This document shows, piece after piece, positions 4,772-61,485 of a DNA stretch of 64,000 nt; positions within the stretch are counted from its first letter, which is position 1; each line of letters starts with the position of its first letter. This stretch comes from Amphiscolops sp. MND2022 (lineage: Eukaryota), in NCBI GenBank assembly GCA_964187785.1, contig OZ076409.1, positions 71,364,001 to 71,428,000 on the forward strand, given 5' to 3'. The notes beneath the pieces were generated by a model, which saw only the letters and a list, made by a program, of their open reading frames with translations, was not told where the DNA came from and did not search any database. A program made the position numbers and the translations under genes.

Positions 4772-4772
<1 letters not shown>

Positions 4773-4810
<38 letters not shown>

Positions 4811-30638: not shown

Positions 30639-33600
30639 GTGGGCGGGGGTAATTCCCCAACAAAAAAATCGGCCGGCGGGTCGGGTCCTGCCGGCCGTCC
30701 AAAATCAAAATTATACTAGTAGAAAACGGCCGGTCAAACGAGCTATTTTTTTATTTAACCGTTAGAATTTGGGTTTAGATTGCATGCGGCCATGAAATGG
30801 CCATACGAATCGAAGTTCCTGCTGACGTTTTGCGATTGAAACACTTTATAAAAAGTTATGGCCAATTTGTCAGTCACCTAGAAGGGCAAAATGAGGAAAA
30901 TTTTAACAAAGTCGCTGATAACTCAAAATGTGTTATTTTTTGGACTTTGACTGTGAAACAAGCTTGGAACCTTCATTTCGTGGCTGTGGCATTGCACTGA
31001 ACGCAAAAGATGTAAAGTTTTTACATTTTTTGAAAATTTGACATTTTTGAAATTTTTTTCACTACTATCAGTACCATATATGTCAAAAACACCTCAGAAA
31101 AAAAATTTTATTTGCTTTAACTTGGAAACCTTGGTATCCATGGTTTCTGTCGGAACCTACTCGCAACCAAACAACCAACAGTTTGCATCCAATGTGAAAA
31201 TAAAAAATTTTTCTGGGTCATAAGCGTTTCACAAGGATTTCTCAACTTAGTATTGATTTACAAAATGGTCATTTTGAACACAATATTTTCATCGAGGCTT
31301 GTCGGCTATAGCCTTAATGTTCTAGAACGGTCCCACTGGCAACGTAGGAACCATTTATAGTAATAGAAAGTTTAAAAAATATATTATCACCCTGTCTTCA
31401 GTCATTTTTCTGTCATTCGGAACTTAACTTAGAAAAATTTCGACCAAAATACCCATTTTTTGACAGATCGAAAATTCAAATTCAACTTTTTAAGCAAAAT
31501 TATTAACTCTGACGTAACCAGTGGGGCTCATGATACTCAAAAACACGATTGGGACTGGTACCAATGGCTCCAATATCATATGAGCCGCGATAAGACGTTA
31601 TTTTGAGCAATACGTCTCAATTGAGGGAAACATCTCGCAAGCCTGTGATCACAGTTAAAAGTGATTTCGTCAAAAATTTACTCTTTTTCGTCAATCACTA
31701 TGTACACAGAGTGCGTAGGGTGAGTTTCAGCACTATAATGCGGTTTTTGAAGGAATCGGTCTGCTCAAGGGGTGGTATGAGACATTTTTTTTGCATGTAG
31801 TACTATATTTCTCAAAACTTTTAGCCCATTATCTCGAAAAGCTCACTTCGCAAATTACTTTCAGTTACTCTATTCGAAGCTTAGAATATATATGAACACT
31901 GTGGTTGATCAGAAACTCTTGACTATTTTGTTTTTGGAAAAAAACTGCCTTGCATGTGTTACATTAGTGGCAGGAAAAATACCAGTAGCTCCAAAAATCA
32001 CAATTTTGGACGGACAGACCTGCAATGATGCAAAGCAAAAACGTTTCAACAACTTCTGGCGCCACTTTTTTTACCCAAGAGGTTCGAAATTACTATTAAC
32101 AATGCTGACATTCGCTATAAATAAGATCGAGGTCAATTTATTAACACTTAGGTTATACATTTATATCTGAGAAACCATTCTTTGTCAGGTCGCAATTTTA
32201 AATTTAGTTTGGGAAGCAATACTTTTCACTCTGAAGCAAACCGTTGGGCCCAAATTACTCAAAAACTACAAAAAGACTGTCACCATATGCCCTAATAGCA
32301 TATGAGATTCGACCGTTCGTTTTTAACACAAAAACTCTCATCCGAAGTAAACATGTTGAAAGCCTTGAATCACCGTGAGAAATGATTTCATCAAAAAATA
32401 TTCCTTTTTCGTCAATCTTTATCTACACAGAACACGTTGTGTCATTTTCAGCCGTGAAATGAGCTTCTACCGTAATATGGGTTGCTCAAGGTGTTGTATA
32501 AGTCAAAAACTTCCTCTTTTCTACTATCTTCTTCAAATATTTCAACCCTTTGTCACAAGAAGTTAATATTCAAAATCTCTTTGAAATGTTTCTTTAGGTT
32601 GGGGTGAAGTGTTAGAACAATAATTATGATCGAAGAATGATAGTATTGGTGTTTGGACCATGTCCGGATGAACAAATTGCAAAATCATGAAAAATTTCTT
32701 ACCATTTTTGGTCATTTTGTCAGTACTAAAAATGTTAGCTGAAAAAGAATTTTTTTGATGGCACCATTGGATTCCTCTCAAAAAGTTAGCTATATGAACT
32801 GTGTAATAACCCCGTATCTTTTCAATTTAAATAATTTTAAAAAGCAAACTTTTTTGACTAAAATCCTAAAAATCATACCATTTCCTAAAAAATTTCAAAT
32901 GCCCCCCATTTGACGTATAAGAATAGCACAGAAAACTATCACATACCGATCGACTCTACTTCCATTGTAAATTACCAGAATTTTGTTTAGAACAATTTTT
33001 GACGGATGCAAAAAAAATTTAAACCCTCCAAAAAAGGGCCAAAATTACACGAAAAAATTGACCTTAAAATTTTAAAATGTCGAAAAATCATCAAAACCAC
33101 AGCTTCTTGGGGTTCTATCAACTCCACGTGGTCCACAGAGTATGTTAAAACAAGTTTTACCCGTATTTGAGCAATATGTGAAAAAGCCGACTTTTTTGGG
33201 AATGAAAAACATACCATTTCCTAAAAAATTTCAAACGCACCCCATTTGACGTATAAGAATAGCACAGAAAACTATCACATACCGATCGACTCTACTTCCA
33301 TTGTAGGTTACCAGAATCTTGTTTAGAACAATTGTTGACGGATGCAAAAAAAATTAAACCCTCCAAAAATGGGCCAAAATTACACGAAAAAATTGACCTT
33401 AAATTTTTAAAATGTCAAAAAATCATCAAAACCACAGCTTCTTGGGGTTCTATCAACTCCACGTGGTCCACAGAGTATGCTAAAACAGGTTTTACCTGTT
33501 TCTGAGCTATATGTGAAAAAACCGACATTTTGGGGAAGAAAAACATACCATTTCCTAAAAAATTTCAAATGCACGCCATTTGCCGTATGAGAATAGCACA

Positions 33601-35399
33601 GAAAACTATCACATACCGATCAACTCTACTTCTATTGTAGATTATCAGATTCTTGTTTAGAACAAATTTTTATGGATATAAAAAATTTTTAAACCCTCCA
33701 AAAATGAGCCAAAATAACACGAAAAAATGGACCCTAAATTTTTAAAATGTCAAAAAATTATCCAAACCACAGCTTCTTGGGGTTCTATCAGCTCCACGTG
33801 GTCCACAGAGTATGCTAAAACAGGTTTTGCCCGTTTTTGAGCAGTATATGAAAAAGCCGACATTTTTGGGGAAGAAAAACATACCATTTCCTAAATAATT
33901 TCAAATGCAGGCAATTTGCCGTATGAGAGTAGCACAGAAAACTATCACACACCGATCAACTCTACTTCTTTTGTAGATTATCAGAATTATGTTTAGAGTA
34001 AAGTTTTATGGATATGAAAAATTTTTATACCCTCCAAAAATGGGCCAAAATGACACGAAAAAATTGACCTCAAATTTTTAAAATGTCAAAAAATTATCCA
34101 AACCACAGCGTCTTGGCGTTCTATCAACTCCAAATGACCTTCAGAGTATACCAAACCAGGTATTGCCAATCTTTTGAGCAATATTTAAAAACACCGACAA
34201 TTTGGCAAGAACACCATAATATGTTCCATATAAGAAGTGAATCATTCCACATATATACCCGGTCTAATATTTTCAAATTAGCGATAACATTTATACATGA
34301 TGGTTTTTGAAAGTGAGCTTCATAAGAGGTTGAGATGTAATAATACGTAAATGGACCCTAAGTTTCATTGAAATCTCAATTGAATACGTCCAATCAACTT
34401 CAATCCTAACTATTATATATCAAAAAACACTTGAGTACATTCCATCTCCCCATCGGGGGAGATGAGAATGTACTTTTCAAAAGCCAAAAACTTCGAATTT
34501 TAAATCTTTTGTAACATTGTATGTAACTGTTGAAACGATGAACGAATAAAAATGCTTCTAGTACCTTCATCAATTTTTGCTTCAGCTCCTATTTCTGCAG
34601 AACAAAACCAAAAGACACACTTACAGCAGTTAAGTTCGATTGTATAACTCAGTGAATAAAGGTATGACTGAGGAAGTTCACAAGTTGTTTCAAAAGTTTC
34701 CGGCCTTCCAAAATCATGAAACGTCCACACAACCAAGATAGCAAGTGAAAGAATGCTGAATGCACCTTATTAGATGAGATAAATAATGTGTGGAACTTGC
34801 CATTATCTCAAGATGACGTTGATTTATGATCTTTTCAGGATAGTTCGATATGTGACCACAATAGTGGAAAACTTATTACTATTTGAAGAACACCGTGGAA
34901 AGCGTTCAGAAAGGACAGTATATTTGTTTCGAGCATGCATGCGTGTGTTCCTTTGGTGACGTTAGCTTAGTGTACATGACGGAGGTATTCGAGAGATTAT
35001 GATAGAGTTTACTCACAAGTCTTTGTTTTTTTAAACTTTCTATGCCGTTGAGTACATTCGTAAGGTACATCCATCCCCTTCTCTGGGAATGTACGTTTGC
35101 CAAATGACTGTCATCCAAAATTCGTAATCCGGACGAGTTTAACTACATAAACATGTGATGAGCGTTTTCAATTCACAACCGAATAACATTTTTTTCTCGA
35201 AAATGATGATGGTTTTGATTTTGATGTCTTCTACTTTTATCATCATGCAAACGACCTTACCATGTCTCTCTTCTGTCGTCATTTGTACAACGCCACATAG
35301 CGTTCCGACGCCCACCGTCTGTGGGCATGCCGAGGCATGCCCTTCGACGACGTATGCCAAATGAGCCATACCCGCACTCTGGAGTGCGGTAGCAGCTAG
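30639..35399 (+). mobile_element. Cassette 15, family I (4761 bp), F-type head with a different 3' body
   Basis: F-like for about 1.1 kb. Type-1 hairpin at 34433-34474. Paralogue of cassette 22. Confidence 0.85.
32874..34210. repeat. Internal ~335-bp tandem repeat, four copies
   Basis: CATACCATTTCCTAAA at 32874, 33210, 33544 and 33880. Confidence 0.9.
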
Positions 35400-37374
35400 G
35401 TGCGGGGGGGTAACCCCTACAAAGATATTGGAGGATTCGGGTAGGGTCCTGAATCCGATCTTAGTACCGTCAGCTATCAGTAGAAAATTTCCCTCAAAAA
35501 CCGGGATCTCGGGAACTAACCGTAGGATTTGAAAGTTGGAGCGGCCCCCACCAGATTTTCCCGAATAGATCGCCCCCCACCGGGCTCCATACCCCGGAAA
35601 ATTTTTTTTTGGCCACACGGGCGACTGTTAGGGGGTCATTTTAGGGGTAAAATTCATATTGGTCCATATAACTTTTTTTCTGTTGGTTTAAAAGTTTGGG
35701 AACCCTACTAAAGGTTTTTCGACCATGTTGCAAGGGCTCCGGAGGTGCAAACCAAATTTTTCTATCTTGAAGCTATCTCCAAGTACCCCCCCGCTCAAAC
35801 CGTTATTTTTCCGGAAACGCAGGTTTTTGACCCGGAAGGAGTCGTCTGAGCGCGGGGTCGTTAGGTGATGTTTTGGGGACGGCCTTGAGACAAAGTGGGG
35901 GACAAGTAGTTTGCCAACCTCAATTTACCCCCCGGACGGGAAATGACCGTTATATGAGCGTGAAAAATGCCCCCCTCCACGTTTTACCGCTATTTCCGGT
36001 GTGAAGGTGTGGGAGTAGCGCGTCGGGTGCCATATATCAAAAGTAGGTTTAGACAAGGATCTATCAAAAACATGTAGTTTGGGACCCCCTGACCCAACCC
36101 GTTAGCGGGAAATGGGGCTTCCGCCTCCTTTTTTTTCGGTTAAAAACGGAAAATGGGCATTGAGGGGTAAATATCTCGTGAACGCGTGGAGCTACGGTGT
36201 CCTTCACTACTACAAGGTTTCATACCCATGATATGGTGCCTTCAGGGGGGCAAACAGATTTCCGCTATCTATCACCGTTACGGACTTGGCCCCCCAGCCT
36301 AACCGCTATGTGACCGGAAATGTCACTTTTTGAGCCCAAAGGGTCGGTCCCAGCCAGGGAACGTTAGATAACTTTTTGTAGTACTCATTGAGACGAGTTG
36401 GGGGACACAGTTTCAGTCACCCCCCGTTACCCCTTGTGACCGGAAATGACCGTTATGTGGGTAAAATTGGGATTTTTGTACTTTTTGAAGGGCAATTAGG
36501 TGCGGAAGGAGTGGTAATAGGTGCTTGGACACTATATGAGGTAAGGGAGGACGTGAGGCGAGCATTCAGACATAACCGTTATGTTGACCCCAAAGTCCCC
36601 CTGGTACCGTAAACGACCGGAAATTGTCAAATTTTGTGTCTATTGGGTACAAATGTTTGGTATTTTGTAAATAAAAGTATCTATTAGGTGTTTCGACGGT
36701 CTGCAGTAGTGAACATAGTCATGAAACCTTGTCGGGGGTAACGGTATATAGCACCGGAAGTCCAAACCGTTAGAGATGGGATAGGTTTTTTCGTTTTAAA
36801 ATGTCTTTCGGCGTACTTTTGTCAACTAATATGGAATATTTTTTAAAATTAAAGTTTTTCCATATAGTTTCAGAGACTCCCAAACCTCAACCAACATAAC
36901 CGTTACCTTATGATAGCCTTTCAAGTTGGCCTGGTGTCAACTTGGAAGGGCTATCCTTCAAAAATCGTTGATCAAATGTGTTTTTGGGTATGTTTGAATC
37001 ATTTTAGAATCAATTAGAGCTTCAAGAAAAATTTGCCAACGACAAAAACTATGTCGTGATGATTCCGTTATTAGAGTAATAGTTAACAAAATGTTGATAA
37101 AGTTGATTTTTTACATTTCAAATGTGTCCTAAAAGCCAGAAAACCTCTTTACCAAACAAATGGTATTGATTGGATTTTATATAACAGGTAATAAAAGTTC
37201 AAATTGATTATTACGTTTTATTATGTAAGCTGAAACGTCATATTATAGTTTAATGAACGTCAACGCCACATACTTTACACCAACGCCCACCGTCTGTGGG
37301 CATGCCGAGGCATGCCCTTCGACGACGTATACCAAATACATTTCATATCTACACCCACCCGCGGTAGCAGCTAG
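35400..37374 (+). mobile_element. Cassette 16, family G (1975 bp)
   Basis: Starts GTGC. Type-2 hairpin at 36912-36955. Confidence 0.85.
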
Positions 37375-38444
37375 GTGGTCAAGGGGGATGCCCATCAGAA
37401 AATATTGCGAGGCCGGGGAGGGTCCCGAGAGCCGAGCACATTCTATCAATTCCTACCTTCAGGATTGCGAAGTATTTTAACCGATCTCGAAATTCACCCG
37501 TAGGATTTGTCTGAAACTTTGCATGTGGCTTTATGACAAAAATTTAAGAACTTTTTTCTGCTGACGTTTTTCCAGGAAAATTCATTTTGTAGGGTTTTTT
37601 TGCGTTTTTTTGGTTTTTTTCATCTTTTTTCATCTTTGATTAATCAATGACCGAATCAAAGGCCATTTTCACCATGAAGGAAAGCCCGTAGCGGCAAAGT
37701 GCACTTTTATGAAAATCATCAACGGTCAACGGTCTTTCGAACGGTCCGAAAAAATTTCCCCCCGGGGGAAACCAAAGTGCCGAAAAGTGCCAAAATTATT
37801 TTTTTGACTGAATCACTTTGATCAAATTGATGATTTGAGCAGCCGGAACGGTCCGCACGGTCTCGGACAATAAGGTCAAAAATTGTCAGCATCCAATGGG
37901 GGTTCCAAAAAAGTAATTTGTTCACCTGTAGGAGACATTTGAAAAAAGTTGATTTTTTGGAGTTTTGGCATTATGACTGATCGGATGACAAATCATTGCA
38001 TCACGTTGAGTTGCATTTGATGCAGCACACGAAGCAGCTGCAGCGAACTTGAAACTGCTTAGGGGGTTGGGGTTTACTATCTGTAACAAGCAAAATATCC
38101 CTTGGGCAAAAGGTATGCCAAAAAGTGCCTCAAAGTGTTAATTAAGTAGTTGCAAATCGGCTAGCAAAATTCATTGTCACCGGTGTTCCGTGAGTTGCGC
38201 AGCATCTCGCGGGAACAACGGTGCTTGTTTCGAACGCAAAACCCAACATACCTCTTTGGTGACGTGACGGAGGTCACCATTGGCCTTTTTCGGCAGTGTG
38301 ATGATATTTTTATTGTTGAGTTGTGAACAACATACACAAAAGATTTAGCGTGGGATATTTGTTTGTGTCATACTTCAGTAACAAACTTTCAACCGTTTTG
38401 TTTAGGCCTCTACCTAGCAGTGCTCTAAATCGCTCCATCGCTAG
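37375..38444 (+). mobile_element. Cassette 17, family J (1070 bp), alternative 3' end
   Basis: Ends GTGCTCTAAATCGCTCCATCGCTAG. Type-3 hairpin at 38184-38217. Confidence 0.85.
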
Positions 38445-39514
38445 GTGGTCAAGGGGGATGCCCATCAGAAAATATTGCGAGGCCGGGGAGGGTCCCGAGA
38501 GCCGAGCACATTCTATCAATTCCTACCTTCAGGATTGCGAAGTATTTTAACCGATCTCGAAATTCACCCGTAGGATTTGTCTGAAACTTTGCATGTGGCT
38601 TCATCTCAAAAATTTAAGAATTTTTTTCTGCTGACGTTTTTCCAGGAAAATTCATTTTGTAGGGTTTTTTTGCGTTTTTTTGGTTTTTTTCATCTTTTTT
38701 CATCTTTGATTAATCAATGACCGAATCAAAGGCCATTTTCACCATGAAGGAAAGCCCGTAGCGGCAAAGTGCACTTTTATGAAAATCATCAACGGTCAAC
38801 GGTCTTTCGAACGGTCCGAAAAAATTTCCCCCCGGGGGAAACCAAAGTGCCGAAAAGTGTTAAAATTATTTTTTTGACTGAATCACTTTGATCAAATTGA
38901 TGATTTGAGCAGCCGGAACGGTCCGCACGGTCTCGGACAATAAGGTCAAAAATTGTCAGCATCCAATGGGGGTTCCAAAAATGTAATTCGTTCACCTGTA
39001 GGAGACATCAGAAAAAAGTTGATTTTTTGGGGTATATGTCATTATGAGTGATTGGATGAGAAATAATTGTATCACTTTCAGTTGGATATGATGCAGCACA
39101 GGAAGCAGCTGCAGCAAACTTGAAACTGATTAAGGGGCTGGGGTTTACCCTCTGTATCGAGCAAAATAGCCCTAGGGCATAAGTTGTGCCAAAAAATGCC
39201 TCAAAGTGATGATTTGGTTATTGCAAATCGATCAGCAAAATTTATTGTCACCGGTGTTCCGAGAGTTGCGCAGCATCTCGCAGGAACAACGGTGCTTGCT
39301 TAGAAAGCAAAAAACCACAAAATCCCTTGAGTTAAGTTGACGGGAGTCACCATAGACATTCACTCGTCAGGGTGATGATATTCATCGTTCAATCCCAGAA
39401 TAACTTACAAAAAATTGCTAGCCTCAATATTTCTTTTTCATACTCCATTAGCAAAGGTTGCGCTGTTAAGTTTAGGCCTTTTACTAGCAGTGCTCTAAAT
39501 CGCTCCATCGCTAG
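38445..39514 (+). mobile_element. Cassette 18, family J (1070 bp)
   Basis: Paralogue of cassette 17. Type-3 hairpin at 39255-39288. Confidence 0.85.
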
Positions 39515-42500
39515 GTGGTCACGGGCTGTCCCCCTGCAAAATTGTGCGAGGCCGGGGAGGGACCCGGGACCGAGCTCATTTTATAAAGTATCGACGTCAT
39601 CTACCAGAAATCGTACATGCGGGAGGCCGATTTTGGAACTGAGCCGTTAGAATTGGATGAAAATTTGCACATGTAATCTTCGAGCAATTCTAAGAACTTT
39701 TTCCTGCTGACGTTTTTCCCGCAAAATTCATCTTCATGGTTTTTTTGACAAAAGTTCGGATATAACGAATTTTTGTTCGGATATAACGTTTTTCTTTAAT
39801 AACTTTTACACGGTGCACGCTAGCCCAATGATGCATACTAACAAAAAGTTGTGAATTGTGGCGCGTCAGATGATGGTGCCAAAAAAGTGCCGCTCGGGGC
39901 ACTCAAAATGCCAAAAAATGCCATAATGTGAAGTATCACCAGTATCACCTTTACTTATAAGTCGATTTGAGCATGTTAAACGGTCCGAACGGTCTCGGAC
40001 CATAAGGTCAAAAATTGTCAGCTTTATATGAGGGATTCAAAAATATAATTTTTACACCTGGGGGGAACATAATAAAAAAGTCGATTTTTTGGGGTGTATG
40101 GCATGATGAGCTAGGATGAAATTTTTTATTATGTACTATTCGTTCAATTACTCACCACGCAGCACCAGTAGCAGCGGAGGTCATATATATGAAAAAGATC
40201 AGCGGGCTGGGGCCTACCCACGGTACTATCGCAAAGTAGGCCTGGGGCAATGGTGGTGCCAAAAAATGCTTTATAGTGAGGAATGAGTTTTTGCAAATCA
40301 GCTCATTTTTGCAAACATGTGAATTCCTCGCCAACAACGGTCCGCACGGTCTCCGACAATAGAGTCAAAAAATGTCAGTGAGCTATGGCGACACCGAAAA
40401 TGACATTGGTGAACCTCTGGGGGACCTCTGAAAAAAATTAATTTTTTTGAGTGACGGTCCGAGTTGATCTCATACGTTGTATGAACTTTTCATGATGATG
40501 TTTCTCATGACCGAGCGCAGATAGCACCGTGGGTCATCTTTATCAAAATGAACATTGGGCAGCGGTCTTACGATTGAGTGCAAAAAACATAGCCTAGTTG
40601 CCGTTGCGAAAGAAAAAAATTCTCAGAAGTGGTATTTTGAATTTTTTAAGTTGACTCGGAGTTACAAAATGGTGATTTGCTCCACAGGAACGGTCTGCAC
40701 GGTCTCGGACCATAAGGTCAAAAAATGTCAGTGTGGCATGGTGGCACCCAAAAACCTATCAGAACACTTGTAGAAAGCTTCTGAACAAATTTCGAATTTT
40801 TACGTGGGTCCGAGAGTTATGGTGTCACATCGTAACAACATTTCGGGTATGCATATCTCCTGCCAGAGTATAGATAGCATAATGGGTCATCTTTTCGAAA
40901 ATGAACGTGGGCCACTGGTCTATCGAATGGTCACAAAAAGTTTTCAATAAGTACCGCATGGCGTGAATAATATGCCAAGATAGGTTATTTAGCATTTTTT
41001 TGCACGACTCGGACCCACAAAAAGACAATTTCTGCTCCACCAACGGTCCGTACGGTCTTCGACCATACGGTCAAAAAGTGTCAGTGTGCTATGGTGACGC
41101 CCAAAAACCTAACAGTACACTTGTAGAGTGCTTCTGAAAAAATTTCGAATTTTTAGTTGAGTCCGAGAGTTATAGAGAGTTATGTTGTCACATCGTAACT
41201 ACATTTCGGGTATGTATATCTCCTGACAGAGTACAGATAGCAACATGGGTCATCTTTTGGAAAGTAAACGTGGGCCACTGGCCTACTGAATGGTGATAAA
41301 AAGTTTTCACCAGTTGCTACAGGGAGTGAAAAAAGTGCTTACATGGGTTACATAGCATTTTTTTAAGCCACTCGGACTTACAAAAAGGTCATTTGCTCGC
41401 GAACAACGGTCTGTACGGTCTCCGTCCATAAGGTCAAAAAATATTTGTGCGCTATGGTGACGCCTAAAAACCCATCAGTTTAGCTTTAGCATGCTTCTGT
41501 AAAAATTTGGAATTTTCGTGCTCACAACGTGAGATTTTGGGTTTTGAAAAACAATTTTTCACCCAAAAAACATGTTTTTCAGTGCCCAAAATCAATGTTT
41601 AAATCACAATAGTCACATAAAAAGTTGTTTTGCATAACATGGCACGTGAGTAGCATGAGGAAAGTGCCCACAGTGATTTTGGATTCATTTTTAAAAAATC
41701 AGCTGCCATTAGACGTTACACATCAGAAAATGATACCTCACATATCGAAATATGGGTTGAATGAAAATCAGCTAATGTGCTTTTTTACTCAATCAAGACA
41801 TTGTTTTGGTCACAACCAAGTGTACAGCTGACGTGGAACACAATTTGACCTTCCAGAATGGTTATATTGCAATTTTGAGTGGCAAAAGCCCCGTTGAGGA
41901 ACAAAAATTCAAGATAAAATTTGTTTCCAAACTATTTTTTGACGTATAGGACTATGAATTTTTGCCCACAAACATCAACTATCCACTTCTGTTAGTCCAT
42001 TGGCATGTTAAAAACACAACTGGGTTTTGACAAGGCACATACACTATAAGTCGAGTAGTCATGGGCAGCAATATTTCCTTTTCAACAATGAGATTCGTCA
42101 AAAATTGATACAACATCATATTTTTGGTGGAGTCGAATTGACAAAATGGAGCTTTATCAGCAATTATTGAATTCTAGCGCAACCAACAGGCACTGTAATT
42201 TAGGAAAACGATGTTTATAGAAGTTTCAAGGTCATTTTTCAGAGTCTGGGATACCTAAAAATATCATACTGTACAGACGCATGACTTCAACTTCAGCATT
42301 TTTCCGGATGTATCACCAGTTTCTTGGTATCGGCGGTCACACTAAGACTGTTTTTTGTCTAACATTATACCCGAGGATCAACTAAGGTGCATACCAGACT
42401 TGTAACAACAATGCAAGGAATTTCGACATGTCAATAGTAGTCACTAGAGGAGATTATGCCCGAAAGTTCCGGTTATTTGCAACATTCCTTGGGACCTTTT

Positions 42501-44404
42501 TTAATCGGTGTTTGTTGGTTATGGTATTAACGCTCAACAACCAGCTCACCGGCAGCAGACGACTTGTTTACACTTATAAAAAGTATAAAAAACACCACCA
42601 CGCTTGGTCTTGACACATTTTTTATCCCATTCGTTCTCAAAATGAAATTTTTTTCCCCGAAAACCCAATTTTTGTCAGGTCGAAAATTGAATTTTCGTGT
42701 TTTGAACAACATTATTGTGTCTGCCGTAACCTGTGGCCTCCAAAATAATCAAAATTAGGTATATGACTGGTGTCAAATGCTTCAGTGGCTTGTGAGCTAC
42801 GATAACACGTTTTGCAAAGAAAAATTCAACTTTCCGGTGAAAATTTCGAAGACACATTTTAACAATAAAAACAGAATACATAAAAACTAACCTGTTTTCC
42901 GTCACTTACTAATAACATAGTGTCAGTGTTGTGAAGATGAGGTCTATAGAGTGGTCTATGTGAAAACTGCGGTGCATAAAGCATTGTGTAACACCAAACT
43001 TACTAGAGTACTGAAAATTTTTCACTAGATTTTTTGCACTTTTTATCAAAACGTTGATACTGTAAACATCAATCAGCAGTTCATTCACTAGGGTTATACA
43101 ACTGTGGACATGTTTCAAAGTCTCTTATCTTCCCGTTGTTCCAAACTTCTTTGTTACGGCTGAAAAGAGTTATATGTTTAACAAGCAATGTTCATTAAAA
43201 GATAAATTAGCAAAGACTGAATCAATTTTATAGTAGCTAACCAAATTCCCAATACGTCTCTCACTACTTGCACTTTACGGACTCTATAGATTTGACAACC
43301 TACTCACATTTATCGCGTTTGCTTATTATACGATTCACATTAAACCAATTCAGGAAACAGCTTTTACCTGAATCTTGTGATAGCCTTCCAAGTTGGCCTT
43401 GTGTCAACTTGGCAAGGCTATCACTACAAAAAACAAAAAACAAGACACCCTTGTCTTCTAATTTAGCTGTAGACAATATTGTCCAACCATCCATGATTTC
43501 TGGAGTTGATAACATGTAATTAGCTGACATGTTCTTTTCGTATATGTTCATCACCTTAGAATTCAGAGACAACATTTTTTCTTTGTGTCTTTCGAAAAAT
43601 ACCTGAAACAATTTGGTCAAAATTTGTGAATTGTATGTAGAATGTCCACTCAATTTAACAGTTGGCTTCTTTATCAGCCTCAGGAAAGCCCGTATCTCCT
43701 CGATTTGTCAATTTGTTACATCTTGTATTGAAAGCTTTCTTTCGTGGGTTGAAAGCGCTATAAAACTCGAATGGAGTGTTCATTAAAATTCGTTTAAAGT
43801 CCGCGAAGTATCGTGGTTAAAAGTTTTCACGTTTAATAATAGTTCCATCAAAAAAGTAGATCCGCATAACACAAACCGTTTTCAAAAATTGTTACAATGT
43901 AAAAATTTTTTCATTTTTTCCCGATTGCAATGTAAACTCAAATGGTGAGTCAACATCTCACGTCTTCTCGCATATGATCCGGATTTGAGTAGAGTCTTTT
44001 AAAACAATAGTAACCTCATTCACCACCACCACCACCACATTCTATTCTAATATTACTAAGGATTTCAGCAAATCCTTCAGTAATTGCGACAAATTCATTT
44101 GTAGAAAATTTTCATTGTCACTTATGTCATTGTCAGCGGTGGATCGAGGTTCGCAGCATCTCTCAGGATGAACGGTGCCTGGTTGTAAGGGACTTCTCGG
44201 GATACCCTATTTTTGTTTTAACGGCCTTCACCATTGTCAATTCTGTATCATAGTGATGATGAAGTTTATCTTTGTTCCCATGGCATACTAAAACAGGTAG
44301 CAGGAAGTAAAACAAAGTATTTCAAACTTTAGTATCAAACGTCCTTCTTCCATTTGCTTAGGCTTCCCCCGCCCCTCTAGTCGTGCTCTAATTACCTCCA
44401 CTGG
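39515..44404 (+). mobile_element. Cassette 19, family K (4890 bp), J-related ends
   Basis: J-like 3' end GTGCTCTAATTACCTCCACTGG. Type-2 hairpin at 43377-43424. Confidence 0.8.
39980..41520. repeat. Diverged internal ~355-bp tandem repeat (about 4.3 units)
   Basis: ACGGTCYGHACGGTCT anchor at 39980, 40337, 40690, 41043 and 41406. Family J carries a single copy (~37848). Confidence 0.8.
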
Positions 44405-45708
44405 GTGGCCACGACCATGGTTTCTTGCGTATCTTGTCGAATCCTTTGTCGTTGCCGGCCGGGGAGGGACCCGTTTGCCGGCGTGTGTAGTGTGGGGCCC
44501 CCATACCCAAAAAGTGGTATTTTTTTCAGAGATCTCAAAATCGGCCCGTCAGAATTGCCTGAAATTTGGCATGAGGCTCCCAATTGGGGAAAAAATAAGA
44601 AGTGTAGGAGGCGACTTGTTCGGGTAAATATTGTATGTTGACTTTTGGCCAAAATAGTGTTCCCCCCCAACATGGGCAAAATCACATGAGGTGTAAAAAT
44701 ATGATCACAACTTTTGAACCTTTGGATTTAGGGGTACGGTCGTGGACCACATTAAGCAAGAGCTTTGGTGCGCGGGTAGGATAGATGGGTTTTGATCTCA
44801 GTACCTTCAACCACTTTTGAGAAATTAACGTTTCAAACAAACATCCGGGAGGTATATGTTGCCCCTGAAGGCAGGTTTTTCGTCATTTTCAATGTGAAGG
44901 AGTGGGTTTAGCGCAACGTGTGTGGGCTGCTTTTTTGTTGCCCGTGTGCGGAGCGTTGTATAGAGGTGCTGGTTGTTGAAATTGGAAAAGTTGGTAAAAA
45001 GTTATACCTTTACCCCCCCTACTGTCTCTGCCATTCAATTTTTTTTTCAACTTCAGGCCTCCCAAAGGTGAGAAACTTCCACACAACTAGTATTGCAAGT
45101 GAATGCATGTGGAAAGTACTCGGATAGACGAGAAAAATGAGCTATAGAACGACTCTGTAGCTCAACTTGACGTTGACTTATGACATTTTGAGTGTGAGCT
45201 TGCTACGAGAGAAAAAAATTCAAAATTGAAAATCGAAGCTAAGTCTCATCCAAAACTCATCGAAATACGTTCAATCCATACCAAAGCGGTCAAACTCCAG
45301 CTATATAGTGCAGCAACACTATTCAAGACCATTTGACACAATTTTATTAGTTTTGACATTGTATTATTCATCCGAGAGCACAAAACAGTTGGGTACATTC
45401 CATCTCCCTTTCGGGGGAGATGAGAATGTACCCGCTAAATGACACGCACCATGGCCTAATTTTTACCTTTATGCGACGTTTTCTAGGCTTTTGCGCAAGC
45501 CCACTAATATTTAGACTGGTTCCTTTCTCTTTCACTCCAAACATTCCGTCCGTACTAACCACCTTACACACCACCAGCAGCTCAACGACACATCTGTAAC
45601 GTCAACGCCACATACTCGCATCAATGCCCACCGTCCGTGGGCATGCCGAGGCATGCCCTTCGACGACGTATGCCCGTTGTCGTAACAGGGCGTCCCCATT
45701 CCCGCTAG
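44405..45708 (+). mobile_element. Cassette 20, family L (1304 bp)
   Basis: Paralogue of cassette 24. Type-1 hairpin at 45391-45433. Confidence 0.87.
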
Positions 45709-47695
45709 GTGGGCGGGGGTAATTCCCCAACAAAAATTACGGCCGGCGGGTTGGGTCCTGCCGGACGTTCAAATAGCGCGAAGCATCTAGTAGAAAACAA
45801 GGAGTCCTGAAACAGCGATTTTAAAATTGAACCGTTAGAATTTGGTTTTAGATTGCATGCGGCCCTAAAATCCCCATACGAATGGAAGTTCCTGCTGGCG
45901 TTAAGCGATTGAAATAATATATAAAAAGTTATGGCCCATTTTTGGGTCACCGAGAAGGTCAAAATGAAGAAAATTTTAACTAAGTTGCTGATAACTCAAA
46001 ATGTGTTAATTTTTGGACTTTGACTGTGAAACAAGCTTGGAACCTTCATTTCGTGGCTGTGGCATTGCACTGAACACAAAAGATGTAAAGTTTTCACATT
46101 TTTTGAAAATTCGACATTTTTGAATTTTTTTCACTACTATCAGTACACTATATGTCAAAAACACCTCTGAAAAAAATTTTTATTTGCTTAAAATTGGAAA
46201 CCTTGGTATCCATGGTTTCTGTCGGAACCTACTCGCTGCCAAACACCCAACAGTTTGCATCCAATGTGAATTTAAAATTTTTTTCGAGGTCATAAGGGTT
46301 TCACAAGGTTTTCATAACTTAGTATTAAACTACAAACTGGTCATTTTCAACATAATATCTTTGTCGAGGCATGTCGGATATAGTCCTATTGCTCACGAAC
46401 GGTCCTAGTGGCAACGTAATAACCATTTATAGAAATGTAAAGTTATAAAAAAAATTTTCACCCGGTCTTCAGTCATTTTTCAGTCATTCGGAACTTAACT
46501 TAGAAAAATTTCGACCAAAATATCCATTTTTTGTCAGGTCGAAAAATCAAATTCAGATTTTTAAGCAAAATTATTAACTCTGACGTAACCCATGGGGCCC
46601 ATGATACTCAAAACAACGATTGACACTGGTATCATTGGCTCCAATAACATATGAGTTGCGATAAGACGTTATTTTGAGCATTACGTCTCAATTGAGGTAA
46701 AGATCTCGCAAGCCAGCGATCACTGTGAAATGTGATTTCATCAAAAATTTACTCTTTTTTGTCAATCACTATGTGCACAGAATGCGTAGGGTGCGATTCA
46801 GCACTATAATGAGGTTTTTGAAGGCATCGAGTTGCTCAAGGGGTGGTATGAGACATTTTTGTCCCATATACTACTGTATTTTCCAAAATTTTTAGCCCAA
46901 TATCTGGAAATACAAACTTGACAAAATACTTTCAACTACTTTATTCAAAGGTTACAATATAGATGAACACTGTGGTTGATCAGAAACTTTCATCTCTTTC
47001 GTTTTCCGATATATTTCCCTTCGCATGTGTTACATTCGTAGCAGAAAAAAAAATCGAAACTGAAAAATACGCAATTTTGCTAATATAGAATCGCAATGAT
47101 TGTGCCTAAAAACTCTTTAAACACTTCTAACGCAACCTTACGTACCCAAAATGATCGAAAATGCTATTCACAATGGTGACATCTGCTCTTTCTACGATCC
47201 TGGCTGGACAAGGTTTGCATATTTTTCAAGTACCTGTCAGCTAAATCTTGTGATAGCCTTTTCAGTTGGCCTTGTGTCAACTTGGGAAGGCTATCACATC
47301 AAAAAACCATCAACAAAAATAATTTTTGTTTATTGGATCTTACAGTCGATACTTTTTTTCGTGATTCTATACTACCGTTAGTATATTTCATCAGGTCACC
47401 TTACGATTGCATTCAGTCTTTGATAAAAACCTATGAACTCAAAGTCACATTTATATATTTTTTTGCCAAAAAAAACATCAAAAATATCTAAAATATATAA
47501 AATAGAGTCTTTAACATTTTTACGTTTCAAGTTTTTGCCGTTATTAGGCCAATCAACGTCCTAGAGCCACATCCTGCCACATACTGTACAACGCCACATA
47601 GTGTTGCGACGTGCACAGTCTGTGGGCATGCCGAGGCATGCCCTTCGACGACGTATGCCGAATACCGCGGGCCTACGCCCGCGCTCCCCGGCTAG
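45709..47695 (+). mobile_element. Cassette 21, family F (1987 bp)
   Basis: Type-2 hairpin at 47250-47297. Confidence 0.87.
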
Positions 47696-50600
47696 GTGGG
47701 CGGGGGTAATTCCCCAACAAAAAAATCGGCCGGCGGGTCGGGTCCTGCCGGCCGTCCAAAATCAAAATTATACTAGTAGAAAACGGCCGGTCAAACGAGC
47801 TATTTTTTTATTTAACCGTTAGAATTTGGGTTTAGATTGCATGCGGCCATGAAATGGCCATACGAATCGAAGTTCCTGCTGACGTTTTGCGATTGAATCA
47901 CTTTATAAAAAGTTATGGCCAATTTGTCATTCACCTAGAAGGGCAAAATGAGGAAAATTTTAACAAAGTCGCTGATAACTCAAAATGTAATAATTTTTGG
48001 ACTTTGACAGTGAAACAAGCTTGGACCTGTCATTTCGTGGCTGTGGCATTGCACTGAACACAAAAGATGTAAAGTTTTCACATTTTTTGAAAATTCGACA
48101 TTTTTGATTTTTTTTTCACTACTATCAGTACACTATATGTCAAAAACGCCTCTGAAAAAAATTTTTATTTGCTTAAAATTAGAAACATTGGTATCCATGG
48201 TTTCCGTCAGTACCTACTCGCTGCCAAACGCTCAACAGTTTGCATACAATGTGAAAATATAATTTTTTTCGAGGTCATAGGTGTTTCACAAGGATTTCTC
48301 AACTTAGTATCTATTTACAAATTGGTCATTTTGAACACATTATTTTCATCGAAGCGTGTCAGATACCACCCTAATGCTCACGAATGGGCCTACTGGCAAC
48401 GTTGGAACCATTTTTAGTAATAGAAAGTATTAAAAAAATATTTTCACCCGGTCTTCAGTCATTTTTCAGACATTCGGTACTTAACTTAGAAAAATTTCGC
48501 ATCAAAAACCCATATTTGGTAGGGTCGAAATTTGAAATTCAGTTTTTTATGCAAAATTATTAACTCTGACGTAACCAGTGGAGCCCATGATACTCAAAAA
48601 CACGATTGGGACTGGTATCAGTGGCTCCAATAACATATGAGCCGCGATAAGACGTTATTCAGAGCAAACGCTCTAAATCGAAGTAAACATCTCTGAAGCC
48701 TGGGATCACAGTGAAATGTGATATCACCAAAAGTTTACTCTTTTTTGTCAATCACTATGTACACAGAGTGCGTAGGGTGAGTTTCAGGACTATAATGAGG
48801 TTTTTGAAGTAATCGCGCTGCTCAAGGGGTGGTATGAGACTATTTTTTCCCATATACTACTACATTTCCATAAATTTGCAGTCCATTGTCTTGGAAAGAT
48901 AAATTCACAAAAACAATTTTTCTACTCTATTCAGTTATTAGAATAAAGTTGATTACTGTGGTTGATCAGAAATGCTCAATTCTTTTGGTTTTTAAAAAAA
49001 TTCCTTCGCATTCGTTACATTTGTGGAAGGAAGGTTATCAGTAGCTCCAAAAAAAACGAAATTTAGCACGAACAGACATGCAACGATGCAAAGCAAAAAC
49101 GTTTTTACAACTTCCGACGTCATTATTTTACCCAAGAAGTTCGAAAATATCATTCGCAATGCTGTCATTCGCTATATATACGATCGCGGTCAATTTACAA
49201 ACATTTAGATTTCATTGTTATGCTTGAAAACCAATTTTTGTCAGGTCGAAATTTTAAATTTTGCCTGGGGAGCAATACCCTTCAGGCTGAAGTAAACAGT
49301 GGGGCCCAAGTTACTCAAAAACAAGAAAGAGACTGCTACAATATGTCCTAATAACATATGGACCACGATAGTACGTTTTTCCTACAAAAAACTCTCATCC
49401 GAAGTAAATATGTTGAAAGCTTTTAATCACCGTGAGAAGTGATTTCATCAAAAAATAACTATTTTTTGTCAATCACTATTTACACAGAATTTGTAAAGTT
49501 AGTTTGAGTCATGAAATGAGGCTTTACCGTAATATGGGTTGCTCAAGGTGTTATATAAGACAAAAACTTCCTCTTTTCTACTAGCTTCTTCAAATATTTC
49601 AACCCTTTCTCACAATAAGTTAATATTCAAAATCTCTTTGAAATGTATCTTTATGTTGGGGTGAAGTCTAAGAACAATAACTATGATCGAAGAATGCTAG
49701 TACTGGTGTTTGAACCATGTCCGGATGAACAAATCACAAAATAATCAAAAAATTGTTCCCTTTTTTGGTTATTTTGGCAGTACTAAAAATGTTAGCTGAT
49801 AAATAATTTTTTCGATGGCACCATTGGATTCCTCTCAAAAAGTTGGTTATATGACCTGTGTAATAACCCCGTATCTTTTCAATTTGAATATATTTAAAAA
49901 GCCAACTATTTTGACCAAAATCCTAAAAATCATACCATTTCCTAAAAATTTTCAAATGCACCCCATTTGACGTATTAGATAAGCACAGAAAACTATCATA
50001 TACCGATCAACTCTACTCCCATTGTAGATTATTAGAATTTTGTTTAGAATGAATTTTGATGGATATTTAAAAAATTTTGAACCCTCCAAAAATGGGCCAA
50101 AATTACACGAAAAAATTGACCTTAAAATACCAAAATGTCAAAAAATCATCAAAACCACGGCTTCTTGGGGTTCTATCAACTCCGCGTGGTCCACAGAGTA
50201 TGCTAAAACAGGTTTTACCCGTTTTTGAGCAATATGTGAAAAAGCCGACATTTTTGGGAAAGAAAAACATACCATTTCCTAAAAAAATTCAAATGCACGT
50301 CATTTGCCGTATTAGAATAGCACAGAAAACTATCACATACCAATCAACTCTACTTTCATTGCAGATGAACAGAATTTTGTTTAGAATAAATTTTACCGGA
50401 TAATAAAAAATATTTGAATCCTTCAAAAATGGGCCAAAATTACACGAAAAATGGACCTTAAAAATTTAAAATGTCAAAAAATCATCAAAACAACAGCTTC
50501 TTGGGGTTCTATCAACTCCACGAGGTCCACAGAGTATGCTAAAACAGGTTTTACCCGTTTTTGAGCAATATGTGAAAAAGCCGACATTTTTGGGAAAGAA

Positions 50601-52456
50601 AAACATACCATTTCCTAAAAAAATTCAAATGCACGCCATTTGCCGTATGAAAATAGCACAGAAAACTATCACATACCAATCAACTCTACTTTCATTGCAG
50701 ATGAACAGAATTTTGTTTAGAATAAATTTTACCGGATAATAAAAAAAATTGATTCCTTCTAAAATGGGCCAAAATTACACGAAAAAATGGACCTTAAAAT
50801 TTTAAAATGTCAAAAAATCATCAAAACCACGGCTTCTTGGGGTTCTATCAACTCCACGTGGTCCACAGAGTATGCCTAACCCGGTTTTACCCATCTTTGA
50901 GCAAAATGTGAAAATACCGACATTTTTGGAAAAGAAAAACATGCCATTTTCTAATAAATTTCAAATGCACGCCATTTGCTGTATGAGAATAACACAGAAA
51001 GCTGTCACATACCGATCAACTCTACTTCCATTGTAGATTATCAGAAGTTTGTTTAGAATAAATTTTGATGGATAATAAAAAAAATTGAATCCATCAAAAA
51101 TGGGCCAAAATTACACGAAAAAATTGACATTAAAATATCAAAATGTCAAAAAATCATCAAAACCACAGTTTCTTGGCGTTCTATCAACTCCATATGATAC
51201 CAAACCAGGTACTGCCAATCGTTTGGGTTATAATAAAAAAACGTCTTTTTTGGCAAGAATTCCATACCATAAATAATAATCATGTTCCATATAAGAAGCG
51301 AATCATTTCAGATATATACCCTGTTCATTTTTTTAATATTACCGATTATTAATTTAATAGATGTTTTGAATGTGAGCTTCCTAAAAGGTTCAGGTGTGAT
51401 GATACGTAAATAGAACCTTAGTTTCATCGAAATCTCAATTGAATATGTCCAATCTTAACCATCAGATAACAAGAAACACTTAAGTACATTCCATCTCCCC
51501 ATCGGGGGAGATGAGAATGTACTTTCGAGAAGCCAAATACGTCCAACATTCAAACTTTTGTAACTTTGTATGTAACTCCTGAAACGAAGAAGGAATAAAA
51601 TTGTTTCTGGTACATACATGAGTCTTTACTTCAGCTTCTATTTCTGCTGAACAAAACCATTCGACTCTTTTACCGGAGTTAAGATCGATTGTTTTACCCA
51701 GTGAACAAAGGCATGACTGAAAACGTTTACTACTTTGTTCATAATTTTCCGGCCTTCCGAAATGATGAAACGTCCACATAACTAAGATAGCAAGTGAATG
51801 ACTGCGAAATGCACCTTATTAGATGAGGTAAATAACGTGTAAAACTCTCCTTTATCCTAACATGAGGTTGAGTAATGATCATTTGAGAATAGTTTGATAT
51901 GTGAATACAATAGTATAAAACAAGTACATTTTATATGAATAACGCCGTGGAAAGCGTTCAGAAAGGACAGTAGGCTTGTTTGGAACATGTATGTGTGGTG
52001 TCCCTTGGTGGCGTTCGCTTAGTGTATATGTCGAGGGGTATTCGAGTTGTTATGATAGAATTTACACACAAGTCTTTTGTTTTTTGGTTTTTTTAAAATG
52101 TCGTTAAGTACCTGCATTCTATCCCCTTCTCAGAGATGACGTGAAGTTACGTTTGCTAAATAAATGTCATCGAAAGATCACACTCCCGACGAAATTAACT
52201 ATCTTAACACGTGTTTAGAATTTTAAATAAACAACCGTATAAGATTTTTATATTTCATTGAGTTTGATGAAGTCTTTTGTTCTTCTCACTACTATTTCAA
52301 CCAATACACATATCCGTTACCATATCACATGTCTCCTTTAGTACAACGCCACATAGCGTTCCGACGCCCACAGTCTGTGGGCATGCCGAGGCATGCCCTT
52401 CGACGACGTATGGCAAATGGAGCCATGCCCGCCGTCTTTACGGCGGTAGCGGCTAG
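47696..52456 (+). mobile_element. Cassette 22, family I (4761 bp)
   Basis: Paralogue of cassette 15. Type-1 hairpin at 51482-51524. Confidence 0.85.
49931..51260. repeat. Internal ~336-bp tandem repeat, four copies
   Basis: CATRCCATTT anchor at 49931, 50268, 50604 and 50940. Confidence 0.9.
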
Positions 52457-54443
52457 GTGGGCGGGGGTAATTCCCCAACAAAAATTACGGCCGGCGGGTT
52501 GGGTCCTGCCGGACGTTCAAATAGCGCGAAGCATCTAGTAGAAAACAAGGAGTCCTGAAACAGCGATTTTAAAATTGAACCGTTAGAATTTGGTTTTAGA
52601 TTGCATGCGGCCCTAAAATCCCCATACGAATGGAAGTTCCTGCTGGCGTTAAGCAATTGAAATAATATATAAAAAGTTATGGCCCATTTTTGGGTCACCG
52701 AGAAGGTCAAAATGAAGAAAATTTTAACTAAGTTGCTGATAACTCAAAATGTGTTAATTTTTGGACTTTGACTGTGAAACAAGCTTGGAACCTTCATTTC
52801 GTGGCTGTGGCATTGCACTGAACACAAAAGATGTAGAGTTTTCACATTTTTTGAAAATTCGACAATTTTGAATTTTTTTTCACTACTATCAGTACACTAT
52901 ATGTCAAAAACACCTCTGAAAAATTTTTTTATATGCTTAAATTTAGAAACCTCGGCATCCATGGTTTCCGTCAGTACCTACTCGCTGCCAAACACTCAAC
53001 AGTTTGCATCCAATGTGAAAATAAAATTTTTTTCGAGGTCTTAGGTGTTTCACAAGGATTTCTCAACTTAGTATCAATTTACAAATTGGTCATTTTGAAT
53101 ACATTATTTTCATCGAAGCGTGTCATATACCGCCCTAATGCTCACGAACGGGCCTACTGGCAACGTTGGAACCATTTATAGTAATAAAAAGTTTAAAAAA
53201 AAATTTTTCACCCCGTCTTCAGTCATTTTACACACTTTCGGAACTTAACTTAGAAAAATTTCAACCAAAAACCCATTTTTTGTCAAGTCGAAAATTCAAA
53301 TTCAGCTTTTTAAGCAAAATAAATAAATCTGACATAACCAGTGGGGCCCATGAAACTCAAAACCACGATTGAGACTGGTATCAATGGCTCCAATAACATA
53401 TGAGTCGCGATAAGACGCTATTTTGAGCAAAACATCTCAATTGAGGTAAAGATCTCGCAAGCCAGCGATCACTGTGAAATGTGATTTCATCAAAAATTTA
53501 CTCTTTTTTGTCAATCACTATGTGCACAGAATGCGTAGGGTGCGTTTCAGCACTATAATGAGGTTTTTGAAGGCATCGAGTTGCTCAAGGGGTGGTATGA
53601 GACATTTTTGTCCCATATACTACTGTAGTTTCCAAATTTTTACCCCAATATCTGGAAATACAAACTTGACAAAATACTTTCAACTACTTTATTCAAAGGT
53701 TACAATATAGATGAACACTGTGGTTGATAAGAAACTTTCATCTCTTTCGTTTTCGGAAATATTTCCGTTCGCATGTGTTACATTCATAGCAGAAAAAAAA
53801 ATCGAAACTGAAAAATACGCGATTTTGCTGATATAGAATCGCAATGATTGTGCCTAAAAACTCTTTAAACACTTCTAACGCAACCTTACGCACCCAAAAT
53901 GATCGAAAATGCTATTCACAATGGTGACATGTGCTCTTTCTACGATCCTGGCTGGACAAGGTTTGCATATTTTTCAAGTACCTGTCAGCTAAATCTTGTG
54001 ATAGCCTTTTCAGTTGGCCTTGTGTCAACTTGGGAAGGCTATCACATCAAAAAACCATCAACAAAAATCATTTTTGTTTATTGGATCTTACAGTCGATAC
54101 TTTTTTTCGTGATTCTATACTACCGTTAGTATATTTCATCAGGTCACCTTACGATTGCATTCAGTCTTTGATAAAAACCTATGAACTCAAAGTCACATTT
54201 ATATTTTTTTTGCCAGAAAATAACATCAAAAATATCTAAAATATATAAAATAGAGTCTTTAACATTTTTACGTTTCAAGTTTTTGCCGTTATTAGGCCAA
54301 TCAACGTCCTAAAGCCACATCCTGCCACATACTGTACAACGCCACATAGTGTTGCGACGTGCACAGTCTGTGGGCATGCCGAGGCATGCCCTTCGACGAC
54401 GTATGCCGAATACCGCGGGCCTACGCCCGCGCTCCTCGGCTAG
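52457..54443 (+). mobile_element. Cassette 23, family F (1987 bp)
   Basis: Closest to cassette 14 by eye. Type-2 hairpin at 53998-54045. Confidence 0.87.
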
Positions 54444-55748
54444 GTGGCCACGACCATGGTTTCTTGCGTATCTTGTCGAATCTTTTGTCGTTGCCGGCCG
54501 GGGAGGGACCCGTTTGCCGGCGTGTGTAGTGTGGGGCCCCCATACCCAAAAAGTGGTATTTTTTTCAGAGATCTCAAAATCGGCCCGTCAGAATTGCCTG
54601 AAATTTGGCATGAGGCTCCCAATTGGGGAAAAAATAAGAAGTGTAGGAGGCGACTTGTTCGGGTAAATATTGTATGTTGACTTTTGGCCAAAATAGTGTT
54701 CCCCCCCAACATGGGCAAAATCACATGAGGTGTAAAAATATGATCACAACTTTTGAACCTTTGGATTTAGCGGTACGGTCGTGGACCACATTAAGCAAGA
54801 GCTTTGGTGAGCGGGTAGGATAGATGGGTTTTGATCCCAGTACCTTCAACCACTTTTGAGAAATTAACGTTTCAAACAAACATCCGGGAGGTATCTGTTG
54901 CCCCTGAAGGCAGGTTTTTCGCCATTTTCAATGTGAAGGAGTGGGTTTAGCGCAACGTGTGTGGGGTGCTTTTTTGTTGCCCGTGTGCGGAGCGTTGTAT
55001 AGAGGTGCTGGTTGTTGAAATTGGAAAAGTTGGTAAAAAGTTATACCTATACCCCCCCTACTGTCTCTGCCATTCAATTTTTTTTTTCAACTTCAGGCCT
55101 CCCAAAGGTGAGAAACTTCCACACAACTAGTATTGCAAGTGAATGCATGTGGAAAGTACTCGGATAGACGAGAAAAATGAGCTATAGAACGACTCTGTAG
55201 CTTAACTTGACGTTGACTTATGACATTTTGAGTGTGAGCTTGCTATGTGAGAGAAAAATTCAAAATTGAAAATCGAAGCTAAGTCTCATCCAAAACTCAT
55301 CGAAATACGTTCAATCCATCCCAAAGCGGATTAATTCCAGATATATAGTGCAGCAACACTATTCAAGACCATTTGACACAAATTTACTAGTTTTGACATT
55401 GTATTATTCATCCGAGAGCACAAAACAGTTGGGTACATTCCATCTCCCTTTCGGGGGAGATGAGAATGTACCCGCTAAATGACACGCACCATGGCCTAAT
55501 TTTTACCTTTATGCGACGTTTTCTAGGCTTTCGCGCAAGCCCACTAATATTTAGACTGGTTTCTTTCTCTTTCACTCCAAACATTCCGTCCGTACTAACC
55601 ACCTTACACACCACCAGCAGCTCAACGACACATCTGTAACGTCAACGCCACATACTTGCATCAACGCCCACCGTCCGTGGGCATGCCGAGGCATGCCCTT
55701 CGACGACGTATGCCCGTTGTCACAACAGGGCGCCCCCATTCCCGCTAG
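54444..55748 (+). mobile_element. Cassette 24, family L (1305 bp)
   Basis: Paralogue of cassette 20 with different neighbours on both sides. Type-1 hairpin at 55431-55473. Confidence 0.87.
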
Positions 55749-61400: not shown

Positions 61401-61485
61401 CAACGCCCACCGTCCGTAGGCATGCCGAGGCATGCCTTTCGACGACACGCGCCGGAAACAATCTAACGGCGCCACCCGCTTCTGG
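58411..61485 (+). mobile_element. Cassette 26, family M (3075 bp)
   Basis: Ends CTGG. Type-4 hairpin at 60820-60859. Confidence 0.85.

Follow-up and report, generated by a model that had tools for sequence, protein, structure and literature searches.

Helitron-like units with GTG…CTRG termini in Amphiscolops sp. break at CTRG^GTG and are likely added one at a time between resident copies

How do so many unlike DNA units come to be joined head to tail through one short sequence, at which bond are they joined, and which enzyme joins them? The question is raised by a stretch of 64,000 bp, referred to here as the window (C1:71364001-71428000 of a 1.07-Gb assembly; a single assembly of a single genome was studied).

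Junctions and units of the window

The motif CT[AG]GGTG[GC] was found 28 times on the plus strand of the window and once on the minus strand. Shuffled versions of the window contained 3.25 matches on average and 11 at most, compared with the 29 observed, so the 28 CTR-GGTG-S junctions of the original prediction are real. Their upstream side reads CTAG in 25 cases and CTGG in three (44401, 58407, 61482), and their downstream side reads GTGG in 26 cases and GTGC in two (unit starts 21903 and 35400). With the letters M, L, F and G of that prediction assigned to unit families via coordinates, its account of the two variable bases held. The R goes with the upstream family: two related units of 2,662 and 3,075 bp (55749..61485, plus strand; 55749-58410 and 58411-61485) both end in CTGG and have unlike followers. 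Either R can precede a given family: members of a 1.3-kb family start after CTGG at 44405 and after CTAG at 54444, and those of a 2-kb family start after CTGG at 61486 and otherwise after CTAG. The S goes with the downstream family, as both copies of one unit (21903..23877, plus strand, and 35400-37374) start with GTGC. As far as the window alone can tell, it was right to bracket the breakpoint to GGTG.

The window opens (1..5477, plus strand) with the 3′ portion of a 21,268-bp autonomous element that is intact. This element starts with GTGG 15.8 kb upstream of the window, ends with CTAG at 5477 and has no internal junction. Its twin on contig C7 is 98-99% identical, is aligned from base 1 to base 21268 and has other neighbours; the exact ends of this twin rule out that the transposase gene, RepHel, is part of an unrelated nested element. 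The end of the RepHel ORF (2,301 aa from ATG), with the last helicase motifs and a degenerate GIY-YIG-like tail, is located at 1..810 (plus strand). Two blocks of a ~296-bp satellite lie between this ORF and the 3′ end (1430-3760). Related blocks occur in sister elements, and they recall the satellite-filled Helitrons of Paramecium.

The element is followed by a mixed head-to-tail array (5478..64000, plus strand) of 27 complete non-autonomous units of 1.07-4.89 kb and the start of a 28th. This array extends at least 59 kb leftward and at least 140 kb rightward of the window. The junction CTGG^GTGG at 44401..44408 (plus strand), to which the original prediction was tied, joins a 4,890-bp unit with a CTGG end (39515..44404, plus strand) to a 1,304-bp unit (44405..45708, plus strand). 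The unit boundary is 44404^44405, the bond being set by solo copies and empty sites. A 97.9% identical copy of the 1,304-bp unit lies at 54444-55748, and both of its neighbours are different. The 4,761-bp unit at 47696..52456 (plus strand) has a copy 95 kb downstream with an identity of 1.000 (to three decimals); the left neighbours of the two are 91% alike and the right neighbours are unrelated.

Both ends of the units carry hairpins. The conserved 3′ hairpin, R-GGCATGCC-GA-GGCATGCC-Y (5408..5427, plus strand, in the autonomous element), is followed by a CGACGACGTAT motif, a variable tail and CTRG. This constant hairpin lies 50-70 nt upstream of the CTAG or CTGG end, and a hairpin closer to the end is predicted in some families only. 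The module is present at 24 of the 28 3′ ends of the window; the 4,890-bp unit is without the GGCATGCC hairpin module. The closing pair covaries, being G-C in 230, A-T in 51, G-T in two and A-C in none of 283 copies. Inside the left end, at 30-60 nt, a 5′ hairpin is predicted, for example at 26700..26727 (plus strand) with a putative 11-bp stem; across families a GG-WAGGGW-CC-like loop region is kept and the predicted stems differ. Many units also contain a long internal inverted repeat (GAGTACATTC…GAATGTACTC/T) and a conserved TTGCAAGTG module (window 6437-6480 and 8612-8660). An Rfam search of the window gave no matches.

Break position and target sites

Solo copies, the outer edges of arrays, which the original prediction had suggested inspecting, and empty paralogous sites pinned the break to one bond. 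Among 1,701 ends of one tail type, the next base was G in 1,672 and A or T in 27, and never C; the final G was absent (CTAC) in the other two. The 27 A/T-flanked ends continue with AT (18), TT (7), AC (1) or TA (1), so the 3′ end of the unit cannot carry GG or GGTG. The solo copy L295 reads TTTA^GTGG…CTAG^GTCGG. In all five uninterrupted copies of its right flank shown, A precedes GT, which identifies the G after CTA as the 3′ end of the unit. L295 and the AT- and TT-flanked ends together leave only CTRG^GTG, and the nested copy L162 gives the same break. Counts by themselves give a weak test of the terminal G (7/26 against 2/29, p 0.07); the two single cases decide the assignment. The units thus have the layout GTG[GC]…CTRG and, almost certainly, the termini GTG…CTRG with the break CTRG^GTG. 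GGTG is made up of the G that closes one unit and the GTG that opens its successor. The breaks CTA^G and CTAGG^T are ruled out by the flanks of L295 and L162 and by the ends followed by A or T. A duplicated CTAG target is ruled out by four loci (L083, L090, L091, L287) with CTTG, CTCG or CTGG on the left and CTAG on the right. Both CTAC-ended copies (L177, L178) are without the full 3′ hairpin; deletions of the hairpin or end of Helraiser are described as likewise yielding a CTAC end (PMC4778049).

To characterize the target, 26 left edges were used, which had been found from the 3′ end or as array edges with their sequence disregarded; four more, sought by their non-G base, were excluded. The four bases before the element were CTAG in eight, CTGG in five, CTTG in four, CTCG in one, GTCC in two and others in six. 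CTNG was thus found in 18 edges and not in eight, with T at −3 (the second base) in 25 and G at −1 in 19. The base at +1 is A, T or G, and the consensus of the off-array target is C/T-T-N-G^D-T. This agrees with the original view that the target is other than A^T. The idea of GGTG as an invariant core or fixed target had to be given up. With a wider pattern, the right flanks read AT (38), TT (16), GT followed by A, C or T (38) and rarely GA or GC (~4), a few of them being mutated junctions. The empty paralogous sites read CTAG^AT, CTTG^AT, CTAG^TT, CTGG^GT and CTAG^GT.

Contiguous empty paralogs were available for L082, L083, L092 (both inserts), L157 and L287; at L157 the last base of the filled left flank differs from the empty site. 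No target duplication was found at 16 of 18 paired sites. The variable duplications that the original prediction had named as evidence against it occur at the remaining two, one of 35 bp (exact) and one of 11 bp (imperfect), which would follow if the nicked target had been extended before the left joint formed. The flanks of the 232.7-kb array at C1:70454838-70687495, of which ~207 of 233 kb were read, together make up a single CTAG^GTAT site of a dispersed repeat, in which no base was lost or duplicated. Flanks of edges were other units, dispersed repeats, satellites or unique DNA; they were not telomeric repeats. L295, L284 and L279 are inserted at TTTA^GTCGG, which forms the head of another family of dispersed repeats; this site is a poor fit to the consensus. 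In one ~170-bp satellite, three unlike units (L157, L287, L276) are inserted at the same CTGG^GT.

RepHel and its relatives

The 2,301-aa protein of the 21,268-bp element has the HUH, two-tyrosine and PIF1 helicase motifs intact in one ORF. A model of its Rep region (pLDDT 84) matched the Helraiser transposase: 7LCC was the only Foldseek match below 0.001 (E 1.3e-7), with a Z of 16.8 against 6.9 for the next chain. Searching the genome with the protein gave 136 matches (134 of 493 candidates scored); in many of them the reading frame stays open over >2,200 aa. All ten RepHel units whose surroundings were read have the same ends and lie in arrays, including two chosen as possible solo copies. 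The units are Helitron-like, as first proposed. The GIY-YIG domain looks intact in four of the ten and degenerate in five, that of the window included; the tenth ORF ends before it. A second ORF of ~340-410 aa lies downstream of RepHel in six of the ten (for example L014:7315-8547, plus strand; L241:5219-6235, minus strand; L265:13523-13918) and is absent from the 21-kb element of the window. Distant copies of it are 24% identical (E 4e-17), a weak match lies beside one distant RepHel, a search gave no Pfam or Atlas match, and its single-sequence fold had a pLDDT of 35.

Proteins of the lineage are 2,200-2,850 aa long, with a long N-terminus and often GIY-YIG. Relatives of RepHel comprised 337 cluster representatives at 1e-30 or better. 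In the 20 scanned, PIF1 was found in 20 and GIY-YIG in 11; DUF6570, the HLE2 marker, was found in none of these 20 and in none of three own ORFs. A Rep tree (126 sequences, 233 columns, FastTree) separated 54 sequences of the lineage from 41 HLE1-like and 31 HLE2-like ones with a support of 0.99. The helicase tree supported the same split at 0.39 only, and the reference sets each consist of the neighbours of a single query; on these trees the lineage is likely, not proven, to be a clade outside the HLE1 and HLE2 samples. The unclassified clusters of HELIANO may include it. A search of viral and metagenome contigs for the loci of relatives yielded one contig, of 16.9 kb, which carries a RepHel and no recognisable termini or array. 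The genome also carries canonical HLE1-type and Helentron-type RepHels (L309-L320; L341), whose listed places are scattered outside the array regions.

Like HLE1 elements and Helraiser as described, the units have a two-tyrosine Rep with a PIF1 helicase, a left-to-right ORF, usually no target duplication, a 3′ hairpin with a CTRR end, and autonomous as well as non-autonomous copies (PMC4778049, PMC5876387, PMC11417382). They differ from HLE1 at the 5′ end, which is TC there and GTG[GC] in units and solo copies here; this non-canonical start had been recognised from the outset. They also differ in the target, A^T in HLE1, in that ~98% of copies here are in mixed arrays, and in their separate branch of the Rep tree. 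HLE2 elements (Helentrons) and Replitrons are also HUH transposons, and according to the accounts available one plant HLE2 family captured GIY-YIG and Replitron-1 makes variable duplications (PMC11417382, PMC10288648). HLE2 differs, as described, in inserting at T^T, in carrying DUF6570 and in having short inverted repeats at its termini (PMC11417382); short asymmetric terminal inverted repeats were not obvious in the listed unit ends. Replitrons differ in having one tyrosine, no helicase and terminal direct repeats, as far as described (PMC10288648).

The closest likenesses of the target lie elsewhere. The telomeric Helitrons of Paramecium are described as a clade outside HLE1 and HLE2 with long ORFs, satellite-filled flanks and strict orientation; they end in CCAA and insert in C4A2 repeats, so that the target matches their own 3′ end, as here (PMC13085455). 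There, however, the host telomeric repeat is both target and flank, whereas here it is the units' own spacerless junction. Compared by description only, GIY, often present here, is not mentioned for the Paramecium elements in the account available (PMC13085455). IS91 has a two-tyrosine HUH transposase, makes no duplication and uses a tetranucleotide target resembling the cleaved end; the targets given for its family are CTTG, GTTC, GTCC and CTCG, with T always second (PMC13181058). Of these, CTTG (4), CTCG (1) and GTCC (2) were found among the 26 left edges here, of which 25 have T second. In contrast, IS91 is bacterial and has no fused helicase, and large self-arrays are not part of its available description (PMC13181058). 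The family works as a Helitron with IS91-type target mimicry, and it belongs to neither HLE1 nor HLE2 by the features of those groups.

Growth of the arrays

Across the genome, the 3′ module with a junction was found 4,226 times, and never in the reversed control. Ends abutting GTG (4,226) compare with ~96 that do not, which is ~98% of ~4,300 ends, the two search patterns differing slightly. The 264 kb read around the window are a contiguous array of 97 units in 29 families (85% linkage) in scrambled order. Same-strand matches run from ~C1 70.7 to 76.0 Mb, contiguity being established for the 264 kb. The largest clusters are at C2 ~102-103.9 Mb, C3 ~2.4-3.9 Mb and C1 ~70.5-76.5 Mb, that is, near two contig ends and inside C1; strand switches occur on C2 and C3, and the clusters are not one per chromosome.

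We propose that RepHel likely adds one circular copy of a unit at a time between two resident copies, and that this single-unit addition is probably an enzymatic homing to resident junctions. The proposal starts from the termini and the break, the off-array target that is mostly not duplicated, the unit-by-unit order of the arrays, and intact RepHel elements with the same ends within them. By analogy with Helraiser and IS91, RepHel would peel off the plus strand, CTRG would be joined to GTG in a circle, and RepHel would nick the circle junction. It would also nick a look-alike target, and strand exchange would then leave two new junction-like sites, which upholds the original view that a nickable site is made anew at each insertion. 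A resident junction would be by far the best target, because, besides the sequence to be nicked, it would provide the enzyme's own terminal hairpins. An array would be seeded when, rarely, a copy inserts at a bare CTNG^DT site, and it would then draw later copies of every family. In vitro, Helraiser is described as making a precise cut at its own plus-strand end-to-end junction (PMC5876387), which would make a chromosomal junction a natural substrate; the junction as preferred acceptor would be the new step. Helraiser in human cells, as described, does not home and inserts at AT (PMC4778049), which counts against the homing reading.

The order of the units bears on how they arrived. Among 277 interior units, 153 best-match pairs with ≥95% identity were found, of which four were adjacent, six shared the left neighbour, six shared the right neighbour and none shared both. 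The units arrived one by one. Host homologous recombination in the shared terminal modules could also bring single-unit circles into arrays, with no targeting by the transposase. The 3′ and 5′ modules are common to all families, as this would need, and like adjoins like: in replicate arrays, adjoining units resembled each other more than expected by chance at both ends (p 0.001 and 0.0015, compared with local shuffles), a likeness that could stem from family-specific recognition, from local hopping or from recombination. A restriction of this likeness to 5′ ends, which held in the window, was not replicated in other arrays and was dropped. Tails are shuffled among more distant relatives, differing in 121 of 280 pairs with 95-98% body identity. 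However, crossovers in the modules would swap tails at each insertion, and the tail stays with its own body in 92 of 94 pairs that are ≥99% identical, which disfavours entry by crossover in a shared module. Only 6 of 285 adjacent pairs are ≥98% identical, module-less families join at the same bond, and solo copies at non-homologous sites use it too. The near-identical neighbours and the differing tails indicate that recombination also acts on the arrays; as the route of entry it is unlikely.

Rolling-circle concatemers or read-through blocks followed by unequal crossing-over, as for plant and bat tandem Helitrons, are a still less probable origin. Tandem Helitron arrays are indeed reported from plants, bats and a hydrozoan, in the accounts available (PMC5876387, PMC11934779), and Helitrons interspersed with centromeric arrays are reported from root-knot nematodes (PMC13404089). 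The 12 instances of one shared neighbour among the 153 pairs also fit such blocks, but the pairs that share both neighbours are lacking, 29 families are scrambled over 264 kb, and the C7 twin of the 21-kb element has other neighbours. This origin is largely refuted.

Selection offers another account, in which the six-base target alone is recognised and the arrays are a safe haven left after dispersed copies have been purged. The off-array target does resemble the junction and dispersed copies do exist, and purifying selection may have inflated the share of copies in arrays. Yet the genome is expected to hold ~6 million CTNG.DT sites, of which junctions make up <0.1%, while ~98% of ends are at junctions; the six-base target cannot therefore explain the arrays. 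In 772 kb of array, 310 junctions stand against 2,216 internal sites that look like them; in the families that carry the 3′ module, no exact copy of it was found away from a junction. We consider this account very improbable. The raw counts of internal CTNG.DT sites, uncorrected for composition, are 803 on the transposed strand against 1,413 on the other, as if self-like sites were selected against.

That GGTG is the crossover core of a site-specific, integron-like recombinase, the strongest reading of the original prediction, has next to no probability left: the core is constant at 301 of 301 junctions scored by a pattern that demanded it, but a core of this kind would be expected in the empty site and at either outer edge, the right edges and empty sites seen lack it, the long units encode RepHel, and no match to recombinase families was found in the RepHel and second-ORF proteins scanned, so that the array edges refute it.

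The proposed homing of RepHel to resident junctions has partial precedents. IS26 uses a DDE transposase that works on a pair of full IS copies, and its circular translocatable unit prefers insertion beside a resident copy and builds arrays; growth next to a resident copy is alike, whereas the chemistry is DDE and not HUH strand transfer. Maize Helitrons reportedly insert near each other. In maize, two unlike Helitrons are described as joined exactly end to start through consecutive insertion (Du et al. 2008, PMC2267711). That is a single pair of canonical TC…CTAG elements, whereas here such joining is the rule for >4,000 copies (PMC2267711, as available, for the pair). The literature searched, which did not extend to Repbase or to most subscription papers, contained neither GTG…CTRG Helitrons nor a case of near-obligate homing to own junctions or of mixed junction-homing arrays, and the claim of novelty is bounded by that scope. 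Adjacent Helitrons were known already; as far as searched, self-homing on the scale of thousands of copies is new.

Target choice and joining are the least understood step of Helitron transposition. For its study the family supplies a well-delimited substrate, CTRG^GTG plus the hairpins of both termini, together with intact, recently copied transposases. The IS91-like rule that the target mimics the element end would here be pushed to near-obligate self-targeting, a safe-harbour strategy that makes its own chromosome domains. Annotation tools based on TC…CTRR would overlook GTG…CTRG ends. If the homing is enzymatic, it amounts to seamless, repeatable, site-specific insertion of large cargo. 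More tentatively, the RepHel-GIY-YIG lineage may be widespread and hitherto undescribed and may act as a self-homing integrase that recognises joined resident ends, seamlessly adds cargo of 0.15 to 23 kb singly and regenerates the site each time, giving rise to integron-like arrays that reach several megabases; if so, eukaryotes would have in it a natural landing-pad system that can be stacked.

Four near misses, each within 64 nt of a resident end, also speak for the homing reading: a gap of 17 bp separates two inserts at L092 and one of 16 bp the arrays L164 and L165, one insert is nested 64 nt into a left end (L162), and an opposite-strand insert lies ~20 nt from a junction (L270). The array at C1:3485000-3637000 (L229-L246) is zoned, with CTGG-ending and module-less families and two matching autonomous elements on its 5′ side and other families on its 3′ side; its left edge is a genomic CTGG. 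Two units are each followed by a short 3′-terminal fragment of another family, of ~33 and 177 nt (L226:4354-4384; L271). In two further units the first 81-85 nt are tandemly duplicated (L227:2006-2090; L228:1305-1390).
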